A DNA stretch of 49,941 bases from a virus (taxonomy: Duplodnaviria > Heunggongvirae > Uroviricota > Caudoviricetes). The translations under genes were made by a program, and so were the position numbers. Below, one piece after another: positions 8,636 through 16,681 of the stretch (position 1 is the stretch's first letter; each line of letters starts with the position of its first letter). Below the pieces are notes generated by a model. It ran no database searches. It worked only from the letters and a program-made list of their open reading frames with translations, and was not told the DNA's origin. Where the stretch lies: IMG/VR virus record IMGVR_UViG_2529293060_000008. One strand, written 5' to 3'.

Positions 8636-8690
8636 ACAATAGCTATTGCTATTGATGATATCAATACTTATTGCTATTGCTAGATGTGTT
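8636..8690 (-). promoter_or_regulatory. Candidate OL/pL: operator-like palindromes overlapping a leftward promoter
   Basis: Perfect palindrome CAATAGCTATTG (8636..8647), inverted repeat ATTGAT-gat-ATCAAT, repeated TTGCTATTG; on the minus strand TTGATA-17 nt-TATTGT fits -35/-10; the same 9-mer recurs in the cI-cro intergenic region. Confidence 0.4.
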
Positions 8691-8800: not shown

Positions 8801-8831
8801 AGGCAAAAGAAAACCCGGCACGGTGGCCGGG
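8801..8831 (-). terminator. Rho-independent terminator ending the cI-side leftward operon
   Basis: Stem CCCGGC-acggtg-GCCGGG followed on the minus strand by TTTTCTTTTG, a few bases after the stop of the PIN-like gene. Confidence 0.6.
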
Positions 8832-8836
8832 ACGTT

Positions 8837-9349
8837 TTATTTCAAAGAAAAATTATGACTAGCGTATCTTGGAAGAAATTCATATAGTGTTAATGTCTTA
8901 ACGCCGTGAGAAGCAGCAGCATCCGGGATCATTATTCTTTTTTTAGGTTTGCCACCGGATGGTTTCTCATGGGTAATAATAGTATATCCATGTGTCATCG
9001 CATGGGCTATTAAAAAAGCATCTGCTTTTTCATGGCTTGCAAAATCAAACTTTGCCTTTTCGGTAACATCTAATTTAGTTGACCAATTTATTAACTTTGC
9101 ATAATTTTCTATTGAACTATGCTCATCTTCGAAGAATGATGATGGTAACTCTTCTTTAATCCATTTACACAATGGATCATCTTTTGCACATAGTTCTTTT
9201 TTTACAGCATTAATGCTATAAATCAGACCATTAATGTGTAAAGCGAGAAGAAAATCCCAAAATATTTTGCAATAATTGAAGTTATATGCAAAGTTTTTTG
9301 CCTCTATGAAGACATTACTATCAATTAAGAATTTTCCATTATGAATCAT
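8837..9349 (-). CDS. PIN-like nuclease (DUF4411-like), putative toxin or effector
   Basis: 170 aa; N-terminal FLIDSNVFIE and C-terminal DAFLIAHAMTHGYTIITHE resemble PIN-domain motifs; start ATG overlaps the upstream stop (ATGA); visibly AT-rich. Confidence 0.6.
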   Translation of the reverse strand: MIHNGKFLIDSNVFIEAKNFAYNFNYCKIFWDFLLALHINGLIYSINAVKKELCAKDDPLCKWIKEELPSSFFEDEHSSIENYAKLINWSTKLDVTEKAKFDFASHEKADAFLIAHAMTHGYTIITHEKPSGGKPKKRIMIPDAAASHGVKTLTLYEFLPRYASHNFSLK

Positions 9350-10485
9350 AGAGATTCTCGTTTTTTATAAAATTCAACAACTGTATCTGCTTTTACATTT
9401 AGCAGTACGCCTGCTTCCCTTAATGGTAATTGTTGAGACATTGCTTTGGAAATTATTATATTCGTAAGTTTTGGACTGTTACGAACAGGTAATGTGTTAA
9501 AGAAAGAACCACCATTAGATTCTTTTTTGGGCTTATTGTAAGCTTGATCTTTAATTATCTCCAAAGTGTTTCTTTCTATCAAATCTAATTGTAACGCTTT
9601 GATTGCACAAGCGAAATCACTAACCTTAAATAACTTAGAAACCTCTTTTACTCGATAATAATTATTATCGCTGGATGCATTAAGCCAGAAAGATTTGAAG
9701 AGATTATCAGGCATTAAGATTTCAGCAGCAACTTTATTACAAAAAGATTCTATGTTTTTTTCTGTGTCCCACCCAGAGACTCCATCGACTCCAAGCCAAA
9801 GATGAGCCACCTCATGAAATAATGTAAATACCTGCGCAGATAACGCGTCCGAGCTATTTACAAAAATGATCGGAGCAACGCTATCAGATATACAGAAACC
9901 ACGAAACTCTCGCGTGTCAAGTTTTCTTTTATTATTATTACCCACAACACCATTCTTGAAAACTAATACGCCAGTGTCTTCTATTAATTTTGCCACTTTA
10001 GAAAAATAGCTCTCAAAAGTGACATTTTTTATCTCTTTTTGTATATCAAAATGTATTGTGTTTGCTATGTCTGTAGCAACAACCTTATAATTTAATTTTC
10101 TATTAAATTTAAATTTACCAATAAAATCGAGTGGATCATCATTACCATTTTCTCTTAAATAGTCTTTGTACCACTCAAGTTTATATTCTATATCATAGTA
10201 AACATCAAAAAAATCTTTTCCTAACTCACGGCTATTTATAGCTTGCCTTAAGTCAGGGATCTTGGGTTTGGCTGGAGTTGGTGGCGTTTCAAGAAATAAA
10301 AAACCGAAAGGGATTCCTCCAATTTTTGCCAGTTTTTCTGCTGCGGATTTACTTACCACTCCGTTAAGAAATTTATTAATCTTTTTGGGCATGACTTGGT
10401 CAGCAAGAGTTTCGATAGAAACTCCTTGAGAATTTGCTATCCAATCAATCATCTTCCTAGACAATTGAAATTCAACCGCTGCCAT
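9346..10485 (-). CDS. ImmA/IrrE-family Zn-metallopeptidase with N-terminal possible DNA-binding region, putative antitoxin or sensor
   Basis: 379 aa; HExxH in FTLFHEVAHLW followed by ESFCNKVAAEILMP, characteristic of ImmA/IrrE (COG2856) peptidases; AGGTGA Shine-Dalgarno 5 nt before the ATG; AT-rich. Confidence 0.65.
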   Translation of the reverse strand: MAAVEFQLSRKMIDWIANSQGVSIETLADQVMPKKINKFLNGVVSKSAAEKLAKIGGIPFGFLFLETPPTPAKPKIPDLRQAINSRELGKDFFDVYYDIEYKLEWYKDYLRENGNDDPLDFIGKFKFNRKLNYKVVATDIANTIHFDIQKEIKNVTFESYFSKVAKLIEDTGVLVFKNGVVGNNNKRKLDTREFRGFCISDSVAPIIFVNSSDALSAQVFTLFHEVAHLWLGVDGVSGWDTEKNIESFCNKVAAEILMPDNLFKSFWLNASSDNNYYRVKEVSKLFKVSDFACAIKALQLDLIERNTLEIIKDQAYNKPKKESNGGSFFNTLPVRNSPKLTNIIISKAMSQQLPLREAGVLLNVKADTVVEFYKKRESL

Positions 10486-10614
10486 GTTATCACCTAGTTA
10501 AAAAAAACTATTATTCAACAATTATTGTTGTGCACCTGATAGCTAACGTCAAGCCTAATTTATTGCCTTACTACAGTAAGCTGAAAAGCGAAGTGCATAA
10601 TTTTGTTCTGATTT
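10486..10614 (-). promoter_or_regulatory. Intergenic region with candidate promoter and 15-bp near-palindrome CAACAATTATTGTTG (10517..10531)
   Basis: Minus strand shows TTGACG then an AT-rich -10-like segment; inverted repeat CAACAA-tta-TTGTTG could be an autoregulatory operator. Confidence 0.3.
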
Positions 10615-11307
10615 CTACCCATGCTTTCTATATGTCTGCGGCATGCTCCCGATGACTTTCCCGAAGATGAACACGCGGTTCATCTCGTCTTTCTCGATCG
10701 GGTCCCACGGTGAGTAGCTCTTGTTATCAGAGATAACCAGCAGCTTATCCTTCATCATTTGCAGGCGTTTTACATGGGCGGTGTCGTCATACAGAAACGC
10801 ATAGATACCATCACCGTCGAAAGATTTAACCGTGATATCAACGAACAGCAGATCACCTGGTTCGATCGTTCCTGACATGCTGTCACCACGCACGTTAATG
10901 ATGCGGATATTTTCCGCCTTCCTGCCATCGAACATGTGACGAGCATCGTCAAACGAGTATTCAACCGAGCGTAGAACTTCTACAAACTCACGGTTGATTA
11001 CACCCGGCCCGGCACTGACTTCTATATCAAGAACGTCAATTTTGAAGTATTTGGAATGGCTGACAGCAGGCTTCCCTGATTGTTGACCGTCATTTCTCAT
11101 CGGGCCTATGCCTGAAGAGAGCCATTCTGTTCGAACACCCAATGCATTAGCTATTTCAACAATTTTTGTTGAGCCGCGCGCGTTGCCGCTTGTCAGTCTC
11201 CAGATTGTGGGTTGAGCTACGCCAGACGCCTTTGCAAGAGCGCCTTGAGACATTCCAGATTGTTCCATCGCTAGATTTAAGCGATCAGCAAGAGTTTCTT
11301 TTTTCAT
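10615..11307 (-). CDS. cI: CI-like repressor (HTH plus LexA/S24 autopeptidase domain)
   Basis: HTH segment SQGALAKASGVAQPTIWRL; S24 motifs VSAGPG (Ala-Gly cleavage site), GDSM (Ser), VKRL (Lys); ATG at 11307 preceded by TATAAA about 9 nt upstream (near-leaderless); divergent from cro. Confidence 0.85.
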   Translation of the reverse strand: MKKETLADRLNLAMEQSGMSQGALAKASGVAQPTIWRLTSGNARGSTKIVEIANALGVRTEWLSSGIGPMRNDGQQSGKPAVSHSKYFKIDVLDIEVSAGPGVINREFVEVLRSVEYSFDDARHMFDGRKAENIRIINVRGDSMSGTIEPGDLLFVDITVKSFDGDGIYAFLYDDTAHVKRLQMMKDKLLVISDNKSYSPWDPIEKDEMNRVFIFGKVIGSMPQTYRKHG

Positions 11308-11417
11308 AAGTTTTAATTTATACGCTTGCGTATTGATGGTCAAAACACGTTTTGCTATTGCTTGGATTAATACGCATTGCTATTATTCATTCATTGCAAT
11401 ACCAATAGGAATTGATA
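11308..11417. promoter_or_regulatory. Candidate OR with divergent pR / pRM between cI and cro
   Basis: Repeated TTGCTATTG-type motifs (11352.., 11377..); TTGCTT-17 nt-TATTAT on the plus strand upstream of cro; TATAAA on the minus strand upstream of cI; ATTGC...GCAAT inverted repeats. Confidence 0.45.
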
Positions 11418-14507: not shown

Positions 14508-15037
14508 ATGGATCCTAAATTACTGTATGCCACGTTTAAACGAAATGACGCACCAGCTTGGCGCTGCCCGAACTGTATGAATGAAACACTGGAGATTGTC
14601 GCTGATAGTTTTGTAGAAACTGATTCAAGCGCAACAACTCAGTTTAGAGATGAAGTATGGTTTGATGAGGAAATGTCGGGAGGAGTATTCAGTTGCGTGC
14701 TGCGCTGTACCCGCCAAGCCTGCCAGGAGAAGGTTGCTTTGTCTGGGCAGGTTGTTGCTGTAGAATGCTTCAATGACGAAATGACGGAGCGTTGGTATGT
14801 TTCTGGTTTCCGTCCTAAGTATTTCTATCCACCACTTCCTCTATTCCTGTTTCCTGAAAAGTGCCCTGAAGATATAGCTGATCTCTTGGCGGAAGTATCA
14901 GCTCTGATCCCCTCGCACCCAGCTTCAGCGGTGAACACCATGAGAACCATACTGGAGATGATGCTTGATAGTCTTGATGTACCAAGAGAGAAAACAGTTA
15001 AAGGCAAGATAATACGTCTTTCTACGCATGAAAGAAT
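14508..15037 (+). pseudogene. 5' part of a zinc-ribbon protein gene interrupted by the IS66-family element
   Basis: ORF with CPNCMN...CVLRCTRQAC (two CxxC pairs); reading frame stops at a TAA created by the IS left end; GGAG Shine-Dalgarno 7 nt upstream; inverted repeat TTAACG-N10-CGTTAA at 14470..14491. Confidence 0.6.
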
Positions 15038-15067
15038 GTAAGCGTCAACGGAGCACCGTATTGACGC

Positions 15068-16681
15068 TTATTTATTGGTGAGTACTACGTTCCATGGCAG
15101 GAGTTCATCAACTCGGTTGGAAGGCCATTCCGGCAGTACGCTCAGGATATGGCGCAGATACGCTTCCGGATCGATACCGTTCAGACGGCAGGTGCCGATC
15201 AGCCCGTACAACAGTGCTCCACGCTCGCCGCCGTGATCGCTGCCAAAGAACATAAAGTTTTTCTTTCCGAGACAGACTGCACGAAGCGCTCTTTCCGCAG
15301 CATTATTATCCGCCTCCGCCAGACCGTCATCACTGTAATAACAGAGGGCATCCCACTGATTCAGTACATAGCTGAACGCTTCGCCCAGTCTGGATTTTTT
15401 CGACAGCGTACAATTCTTCTCCACCATCCATTCATGCAGCGACGTCAGTAACACTTTGCTTCGCTGCTGCCTGACGGCAAGACGCTCTGACTCCGGTAAT
15501 CCCCGTATTTCATCCTCGATGGCGTACAGTTCACTGATTCGCTTCAGTGCTTCTTCTGCCGTCGCACTTTTGCTGCTGATGTATACATCGTGGATTTTTC
15601 GCCGGGCATGGGCCCAGCACGCAACTTCTGTCAGTGCACCACCTTCACGTTCTGCACTGAACAACCTGTCGTAACCTGTGAACGCATCCGCCTGCAGGAT
15701 ACCCCGGAAGGGGCGGAGGTGTTGCTCCGGGTGTTTCCCCTGCCGGTTCGGCGAGTACGCGAACCAGACCGCTGGAGGAGATGACGAACCCACATTGCGA
15801 TCATCCCGGACATACGTCCAGATACGCCCTGTTTTCGCCTTTTTCTGACCCGGTGCCAGTACCTTTACCGGTGTGTCATCAGTGTGAATCTTGCGGGTGT
15901 TCATTACATAACGGTACAGGGCATCATTCACCGGTGTCATTAACTGGCAGCACGCGTCAACCCAGTTGGAGAGTAAGGCCCGGCTCAGTTCGACACCCTG
16001 GCGGGCAAAGATTTCACTCTGACGATACAGTGGCAGATGTTCGCAGTATTTTCCCGTTAACACGCGGGCAAGTAATCCGGGGCCCGCGATACCACGCTCT
16101 ATCGGGCGGGACGGCGCCGGTGCTTCAACAATACAGTCACATTTTGTACAGGCTTTTTTTACCCGTTCTGTGCGGATCACTTTCAGGGCACTGCTCACCA
16201 GTTCCAGCTGTTCAGCGCTGACTTCCCCCAGATAATCCAGCTCACCGCCACACTCCGGGCAACAGCTTTCTTCTGGCTCCAGGCGGTGTATTTCACGGGG
16301 AAGGTGTGCCGGTAACGGACGACGATGGCGCGACTGTCGCAACTGGCGGGGAACCTGAGGATCGTCTTCCCGCCCACTGTAACGATCGCTGTCCTGTTCA
16401 CGTTGTTTCAGCAGAGCCTCAGCCAGTTCAACTTCACGACGCAGTTTTTCAGAACGGGTACCGAACAGCATCCGGCGCAGTTTTTCTATCTGAGCCCGCA
16501 GATGTTCTATTTCCCGTTCATCTTCTTCGATCTTTTCTTCGGCACGTGTCAGTGCAGAGCGCAGGAAGGCTTCCGTCTCTTCAACCAGACTCAGTTGCTG
16601 GTCTTTCTGACGGAGGGCTTCAGCCTGCTCAGAGAGCAACCTTTCCAGCTCTGCGATGCGAATGAGGTATTTCTGACTCAT
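15068..16681 (-). CDS. tnpC: IS66-family transposase (TnpC)
   Basis: 537 aa with N-terminal coiled coil and Cys-rich segment (CCPECGGEL...CTKCDC), typical of IS66 transposases. Confidence 0.8.
   Translation of the reverse strand: MSQKYLIRIAELERLLSEQAEALRQKDQQLSLVEETEAFLRSALTRAEEKIEEDEREIEHLRAQIEKLRRMLFGTRSEKLRREVELAEALLKQREQDSDRYSGREDDPQVPRQLRQSRHRRPLPAHLPREIHRLEPEESCCPECGGELDYLGEVSAEQLELVSSALKVIRTERVKKACTKCDCIVEAPAPSRPIERGIAGPGLLARVLTGKYCEHLPLYRQSEIFARQGVELSRALLSNWVDACCQLMTPVNDALYRYVMNTRKIHTDDTPVKVLAPGQKKAKTGRIWTYVRDDRNVGSSSPPAVWFAYSPNRQGKHPEQHLRPFRGILQADAFTGYDRLFSAEREGGALTEVACWAHARRKIHDVYISSKSATAEEALKRISELYAIEDEIRGLPESERLAVRQQRSKVLLTSLHEWMVEKNCTLSKKSRLGEAFSYVLNQWDALCYYSDDGLAEADNNAAERALRAVCLGKKNFMFFGSDHGGERGALLYGLIGTCRLNGIDPEAYLRHILSVLPEWPSNRVDELLPWNVVLTNK

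Follow-up and report, generated by a model that had tools for sequence, protein, structure and literature searches.

Does a gene cassette that lies directly behind a phage repressor gene depend for its expression on the repressor promoter, or does it bring a promoter, and perhaps an operator, of its own? The question is raised by a lambdoid prophage sequence of 49,941 nucleotides (IMG/VR virus record IMGVR_UViG_2529293060_000008; Caudoviricetes), the whole of which we call the window. The relevant genes all lie on the minus strand, in the order of a cI-like repressor gene, a gap of 129 nt, a gene for a metallopeptidase of the M78 (ImmA/IrrE) family with a predicted helix-turn-helix (HTH) fold at its N-terminus, and a gene of the DUF4411 family. 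A preliminary description, made from the sequence of the window alone, had proposed that the gap contains a promoter for the peptidase cassette, acting in addition to read-through from the repressor promoter, and a palindrome that might be bound by the N-terminal region of the peptidase. From a comparison of homologous loci we consider it likely that the gap holds a genuine sigma-70 promoter as the first element of a mobile cassette, with the palindrome most likely incidental.

Elements of the gap

The minus-strand text of the gap (...GGCTTGACGTTAGCTATCAGGTGCACAACAATAATTGTTGAATAATAGTTTTTTTTAACTAGGTGATAACATG) contains the elements whose positions are collected in Table 1. The 129-bp interval between the repressor stop and the peptidase start, the -35-like hexamer TTGACG on the minus strand and the Shine-Dalgarno sequence AGGTGA are all present as they had been described. 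The -35 hexamer is separated by 17 nt, within the permitted 17±1 nt, from a -10 hexamer AACAAT. From the usual distance between a -10 box and the start, transcription is predicted to begin within the zone given in Table 1, generating a 5′ untranslated region (UTR) of ~31-34 nt, in which a run of eight T nucleotides (10507..10500) precedes the Shine-Dalgarno sequence. In the leader, which extends from the repressor stop to the -35 hexamer, there is a weak hairpin, CTTACTgtAGTAAG (10580..10567), that lacks a T-run, and an A/T-rich tract lies immediately 5′ of the -35 hexamer. A-rich tracts (AAAAC-like) are found 5′ of the -35 hexamer in most close relatives, and such a tract could possibly act in the manner of an UP element.

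The palindrome is a perfect dyad with the sequence originally given, but it lies one base lower, at 10516..10530 and not at 10517..10531. It may be read as arms of 6 bp separated by three bases, or as arms of 7 bp about a single central base (CAACAAT-A-ATTGTTG). The left arm, CAACAAT, consists of the -10 box with one further base, and the right arm spans the predicted start of transcription. The sequence CAACAATaATTGTTG extends over the region from -10 to +2, placing dyad symmetry over the core promoter.

Neither the dyad nor the pair of hexamers is significant within the window alone. When the gap was subjected to 5000 dinucleotide shuffles, with a spacer of no more than 3 nt allowed, dyads with arms of 7 bp or longer arose in 6.3% of the shuffles, a figure that rose to 22% when arms of 6 bp sufficed, and there are 20 such dyads in the whole window. 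(A repeat search of the gap with a seed of 6 and a minimum length of 10 found none, the arms being 6-7 bp, and our own dyad scan was substituted.) TTGACG-17-AACAAT matches the consensus at nine of 12 positions, and is one of 13 promoter-like matches between 8000 and 12000, where shuffled sequences give 8.6±3.4. With the scores inside the window so near to chance, the question is therefore settled by comparison with other sequences. The promoter gains significance solely through the homologous loci, and the palindrome does not gain it.

Conservation of the probable promoter in homologous cassettes

The homologues of the peptidase form a graded series, and their loci were sampled as one genome per species. 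In 79 of the 80 genome loci the next gene after the peptidase homologue is one of the DUF4411 family. In the cassettes that we compared the peptidases are 53-82% identical, and 13 upstream regions were aligned. The close homologues (70-82% identity) lie behind unrelated repressors of 127, 130, 143 and 217-240 amino acids. The distant homologues (53-55%) follow a repressor of 155 or of 236-241 amino acids, with other small cargo genes in between (loci L095 and L099-L101). At two further loci, L086 and L098, there is no repressor, and the cassette is found in a primase/DUF927-YdcA context. At both (L086 1..1725 and L098 1..2500) the cassette lies outside immunity regions, keeps its promoter and comes after a YdcA-like gene; the surroundings in L098 also include a primase/DUF927 gene, possibly as part of a satellite- or island-type element.

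The only invariant blocks in the 13 aligned upstream regions are TTGAC, AAnAnT, GGTG and ATGGC. Twelve independent homologous cassettes keep TTGAC(G/C) and AA(C/T)A(A/C)T at an exact spacing of 17 nt, with no gap in the alignment. TTGACG and AACAAT are identical in all close lineages (10 of 10), and the more distant loci L007 and L014 have TTGACC-17-AATACT; these hexamers, changed yet promoter-like, fit selection for promoter function and not for one fixed protein-binding word. The GGTG core of the Shine-Dalgarno sequence is identical in 12 of the 13 regions (it is offset by the alignment in L007), and the start ATGGC is invariant in all 13. Among the ten close lineages the pairwise identity is 1.00 for the -35 hexamer and 1.00 for the -10 hexamer. 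The corresponding values are 0.37 for the 20 nt located 5′ of the -35 hexamer, 0.44 for the 17-nt spacer and 0.42 for the 12 nt that follow the -10 hexamer, which is the region of the right arm of the dyad.

The wider family was examined for sigma-70 matches of at least 9/12 on the coding strand. These occur in 27 of 71 non-redundant upstream regions, compared with 7.3±2.3 (maximum 15) in shuffled sequences, counts in which the regions from the Pseudomonas loci L067-L084 may be offset together with their assumed starts. Across the family the -35 hexamer mostly begins 57-73 nt before the ATG. The same Pseudomonas loci have a conserved AAGGAGAAAGGCAATG ~90 nt upstream of the assumed start, and their sequences suggest that these homologues carry an N-terminal extension or a small leader open reading frame (ORF).

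The gap as part of the cassette

The same cI allele (96-99% identical) is present in the phages PhiR70_1, PhiR68_2, Lambda_4C10 and Perceval, and each of these four has a cargo of its own, of two or three genes, leading from cI to the leftward backbone. In all four, homology to the window stops at the cI stop codon, at 10615 (10619 in one phage), and restarts at 8831..8842. The G+C content passes from ~50% to ~30% across 8850..10500. From the break in homology at the cI stop and the AT-rich composition, the gap therefore arrived with the cassette. At the other end the hairpin at 8814..8831 is common to phages with other cargo, and the terminator is therefore assigned to the backbone. The slot between the cI stop and this hairpin (window 8832..10614) is a cargo hotspot. 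The interval from cI to N is a known mosaic hotspot, occupied by rexAB in lambda and by bstA in BTP1 (PMC8585504).

No convincing promoter was found in the gaps of the other cargos behind the same cI allele; the promoter is specific to this cassette and not a property of the slot. None of the phage records in the phage database matched the cassette. In 33 Escherichia coli genomes and 16 viral loci that have a 100% identical peptidase, and in which the upstream region was reached, there is 0-1 mismatch in 200 nt; these E. coli and IMG/VR regions are so nearly identical that there is no comparative signal among them. In a single genome assembly, that of Pasteurellaceae bacterium Macca, five or more copies of the cassette are spread over four contigs (L008-L012) and are identical in the 160 nt upstream, which suggests that there the cassette rides on a multi-copy element.

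Thus the proposal that the cassette has a promoter of its own is well supported by comparison. The gap is cassette DNA, and the hexamers and their 17-nt spacing are kept behind unrelated repressors and in two contexts outside immunity regions.

The palindrome as a possible operator

Whether the palindrome could be an operator for the peptidase depends in part on the nature of the N-terminal region of that protein, which had been credited with only weak HTH character. By sequence there is none to be detected: the N-terminal 81 residues had no match in Pfam with the threshold set at E ≤ 10, nor among the sequences of the Protein Data Bank when these were searched with a profile. The predicted fold corrects this assessment, giving a clear HTH of the Xre/Cro type. 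The full-length AlphaFold model has a predicted local distance difference test score (pLDDT) of 89 and matches CapP, IrrE and PprI. When residues 1-82 were modeled separately (pLDDT 81) the best matches were solely HTH proteins of the Xre/Cro type, namely C.BclI, C.Csp231I, the 434 repressor, BldD, C.AhdI, SinR and DdrO, with TM-scores of ~0.5-0.6 and probabilities of 0.9-0.99, and with weak E-values. On this model DNA binding by the peptidase, and autoregulation somewhere, are plausible.

If the dyad were a real operator, a dimer of the HTH-M78 protein bound at 10516..10530 would cover the -10 box and the start of transcription, and would repress its own operon. The protein would then be comparable to the antitoxin of a type II system, or to a fusion of ImmR with ImmA, and its cleavage or titration on phage attack would derepress the cassette and release the PIN-like DUF4411 nuclease as a toxin. 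The dyad lies exactly over the -10/+1 region of the conserved promoter, and the modeled HTH would provide the means of binding it. Moreover, HTH-M78 proteins have been treated as antitoxins or regulators in the literature (PMC5499597; PMC10440598).

The behavior of the dyad in related cassettes argues against this. The form with 7-bp arms and one central base is limited to the clonal E. coli lineage. The left arm is conserved because it is the -10 box, and the right-arm region is only as well conserved (42%) as the neutral flanks; the right arm is absent from L085, L006, L093 and L095. L085 is without the dyad although its N-terminal domain differs from that of the window by only a few conservative residues, and L005 has the same putative recognition helix PKKINKF with the arms spaced differently by 2 bp. 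Nor are dyads enriched in the family as a whole: among 69 non-redundant upstream regions 7% have p ≤ 0.05 and 20% have p ≤ 0.2, a distribution like the uniform one, and Fisher's combined p is 0.91. Shuffles of the gap equal the dyad 6% of the time. The suggestion that the N-terminal region of the peptidase binds the palindrome is therefore not upheld. Most likely, the palindrome consists of a conserved -10 box and a downstream complement peculiar to one lineage, and is incidental and not a conserved operator.

Some points weigh against the interpretation as a genuine promoter with an incidental palindrome. The promoter has been called from conservation of sequence only. Its -10 hexamer is non-consensus (4/6), and the match taken alone is no better than the AT-rich background. 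The close lineages are related by descent, and the conservation counts are not fully independent. The peptidase does have an HTH-fold domain in its predicted structure. Finally, a shorter and differently spaced dyad, ACAAT-N3-ATTGT, is retained in L005, L086/L098 and L090 despite differences in the 3-nt spacer and divergence of the neighboring bases, and L087 has 4/5 of it. This is the one hint of function in the palindrome, and a dyad placed at -10/+1 may be under selection to some extent. If an operator exists, then the differences between the dyads, 7-1-7 in E. coli but 5-3-5 in three further lineages, would mean that operator and HTH had evolved together. Taking both sides together, we regard a lineage-specific operator of this kind as unlikely, and prefer the interpretation of a cassette-borne promoter into which the palindrome probably falls by coincidence.

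Probable read-through from the repressor gene

A search of 10486..10614 for a terminator-like site, comprising a G+C-rich stem with an adjoining T-run, found none. With nothing of the kind to stop it behind cI, transcription that starts at the repressor promoter should continue into the cassette, and the read-through that had been proposed is judged likely by this reasoning.

It might then be argued that there is no functional promoter in the gap at all, the cassette being expressed only from the end of the repressor transcript, and the hexamers having arisen by chance in DNA rich in A and T. The modest score of the match (9/12, one of 13 where 8.6 are expected) and the failure to find a terminator are in keeping with this, as is the lack of a clear promoter in the gaps of the other cargos behind the same cI allele. 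In addition, according to Owen et al. (PMC8585504), bstA in this slot is presumably transcribed from the promoter of the repressor. Yet the hexamers and their spacing are perfectly kept where the surroundings diverge, they are retained where the cassette follows no repressor (L086 and L098) or lies beyond other genes (L095 and L099-L101), and promoter-like matches are enriched across the family at a fixed distance from the start. We therefore consider the absence of a promoter to be improbable.

Other explanations of the dyad

The likely operators of the phage repressors are arrays of CAATA/TATTG units, in the right operator region (OR) at 11345..11400, with the units GCTATTGC, GCATTGCTATT and CATTGCAATA, and in the left operator region (OL) at 8640..8690, with the units AGCAATAGCTATTGT, GCAATAGCAATA and TATTGATatcATCAATA. 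The dyad in the gap contains CAAT-A-ATTG, which has some likeness to these units and might suggest that cI or Cro of this phage binds there as at a further operator, which would bring the cassette under the control of immunity. The spacing of the half-sites is unlike, however, since OR and OL have CAATAnnTATTG where the gap has CAAT-n-ATTG. In cassettes behind unrelated repressor alleles the CAACAAT arm is kept, and hence is not tied to this cI, and the homology with phages having the same cI stops at the stop codon. A cI or Cro operator is thus discounted because of half-site spacing and linkage to the cassette, and we give the idea very little credence.

Equally far-fetched is a role for the dyad in RNA, as a hairpin, an attenuator or a terminator of cI read-through, or as a DNA element in the manner of the aba self-immunity site. 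A 6-bp CAACAA/UUGUUG stem is present in both the minimum-energy and the centroid folds, with the T8 run lying 8 nt downstream, and BstA, encoded in the same slot, is suppressed by aba, a DNA element of 63 bp situated where bstA begins (PMC8585504). Against this, the stem is weak and entirely A-U/G-U-poor, the T-run is not adjacent to it, and the terminator scan found no site. Folding of the gap is poorer than that of shuffled sequences (z = +1.0), of which 168 in 200 do as well or better; conservation does not extend to the right arm, and nothing ties the cassette to BstA. There was no Rfam match in the gap.

A LexA box was also rejected, the sole CTGT in the gap having no ACAG at N8. A near-copy of the palindrome with one mismatch, CAACAAaaaTTGTTG, lies inside the cI coding sequence at 11157..11171, where it encodes STKIVE, 641 bp from the copy in the gap; we estimate that roughly 0.004-0.012 such matches would be expected in the whole window. 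An arrangement of paired sites was rejected, since phages with the same cI but without the cassette have the 11157..11171 copy too, and there is no second copy at other cassette loci. The near-copy is probably a coincidence.

A self-contained cassette and its relation to known systems

We suggest the following picture. A lambdoid prophage would have acquired an AT-rich, horizontally mobile cassette of two genes in its variable cargo slot, which is bounded by cI on one side and by the backbone terminator on the other. The cassette would carry its own sigma-70 promoter, comprising the hexamers of Table 1 with their 17-nt spacer, a start near 10516..10519 and a UTR of ~32 nt leading through AGGTGA to the ATG at 10485. 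In the lysogen two sources of transcript are probable, namely read-through of transcription begun at the repressor promoter and initiation at the cassette's own promoter, and the latter would sustain expression of the cassette whatever the state of cI.

In phage lambda the rexB promoter is internal to rexA, and drives rexB only. The analogy drawn earlier with this promoter is apt insofar as both would allow expression of a cargo after cI that is independent of cI. It fails in that the lambda promoter serves the second gene only, whereas the promoter here precedes both genes of the cassette and moves with it. There is also a likeness to the moron concept (Juhala/Hendrix) of lambdoid phages, in which foreign, AT-rich genes come to separate genes that are neighbors in related phages. 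As for a moron, the insert would bring its own promoter, judged by conservation only; a cassette-borne terminator, which a moron would have, was not found, the hairpin at 8814..8831 being that of the backbone. The position directly downstream of the repressor gene, in the mosaic cI-to-N slot, is shared with other cargo (PMC8585504). There, bstA of BTP1 presumably shares the cI promoter (PMC8585504), whereas this cassette appears to have its own.

The gene order and domains are those of the HTH-DUF955(M78)/DUF4411.1 three-domain toxin-antitoxin (TA) modules, in which a fused HTH-M78 protein is followed by DUF4411, the latter being the predicted toxin (Matelska et al. 2017, PMC5499597). That module was predicted from gene context only, without a promoter, operator or phenotype. 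The cassette also resembles RosmerTA (RmrA/RmrT; Millman et al. 2022; NetFlax node D25, PMC10440598), a two-gene operon of mobile elements and prophages encoding a Zn-peptidase with a small N-terminal HTH, and a putative toxin. In the present peptidase the M78 domain and an HEVAH motif (residues 224-228) are both found. Compared with the PADLOC models, its match to capP has an E-value of 1e-14, and those to the RmrA models are weak and partial (6e-8 to 8e-4, ~30 bits or less). There is no recognized RmrT partner, and the DUF4411 protein has no match among the PADLOC models; on these matches the cassette would be no more than a candidate RosmerTA. We infer a toxin-antitoxin or defense role for the cassette.

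ImmR/ImmA of ICEBs1 and DdrO/IrrE, in which an M78 protease cleaves an HTH repressor, likewise bring together an HTH and a protease in one regulatory unit, beside a repressor gene, and the M78 fold here matches IrrE, PprI and CapP. Unlike those systems, the HTH is fused to the protease, and the neighboring cI has its own S24 self-cleavage domain. Furthermore, cI varies between loci while DUF4411 is the constant partner, and for these reasons cI is unlikely to be the substrate of the peptidase. Autoregulated promoters of type II TA systems, where the antitoxin binds a palindromic operator lying over the -10/-35 boxes, offer a last parallel: here too a dyad falls on the -10/+1 region in front of an operon, the first gene of which encodes a protein with a modeled HTH fold. 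They differ in that the dyad here is not kept in close homologues and dyads are not enriched in the family. Set beside these systems, the feature is an ordinary cassette-borne promoter.

It would follow that a predicted TA or defense cassette can move between prophage immunity regions as a self-contained unit, with a promoter, a ribosome-binding site and two coupled genes, so that the resident repressor need not be required for its expression. For tests of defense this would define a module for cloning, with the native promoter within ~70 nt of the start codon, and it should aid the annotation of the cI-downstream cargo slot in lambdoid prophages. The analysis removes a tempting but unsupported operator call, and does not overturn current understanding.

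Layout of the region

Table 1. Positions in the window of the gap, its sequence elements and the flanking genes.
Feature	Position	Strand	Remarks
cI-like repressor gene	10615..11343	-	longest ORF, start TTG 11343, 242 amino acids; stop TAG 10617..10615
Gap	10486..10614		129 nt, from the cI stop TAG to the peptidase ATG (10485..10483)
Leader	10553..10614	-	62 nt, from the cI stop to the -35 hexamer; common neither to same-cI phages nor to other cassettes
-35 hexamer TTGACG	10552..10547	-	5/6 to TTGACA
-10 hexamer AACAAT	10529..10524	-	4/6 to TATAAT; A at position 2, T at position 6
Predicted transcription start zone	10516..10519	-	5-8 nt after the -10 hexamer
Perfect dyad	10516..10530	both	CAACAA-TTA-TTGTTG (plus), CAACAATAATTGTTG (minus)
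Shine-Dalgarno sequence AGGTGA	10495..10490	-	4 nt before the ATG
HTH-M78 (ImmA/IrrE) metallopeptidase gene	9346..10485	-	379 amino acids; Pfam Peptidase_M78 1.2e-13
DUF4411 (PIN-like) gene	8837..9349	-	170 amino acids; Pfam DUF4411 1.2e-37
Bidirectional terminator hairpin	8814..8831	both	G+C-rich, T-runs on both sides; directly after the cassette; phage backbone

The ATG of the DUF4411 gene overlaps the stop codon of the peptidase gene in the sequence ATGA, by which the two genes are translationally coupled. The repressor has Pfam matches to Peptidase_S24 (1.5e-18) and HTH_3. Its RefSeq form, as annotated in E. coli IAI1, has 230 amino acids and begins at the ATG at 11307; with this start the OR region is longer than the list of ORFs implies.

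Elsewhere, within the early region of the prophage, an ORF of 537 amino acids (15068..16681, minus strand) has the look of a transposase of the IS66 family. It is adjoined by an ORF of 177 amino acids (14508..15041) that may be truncated.

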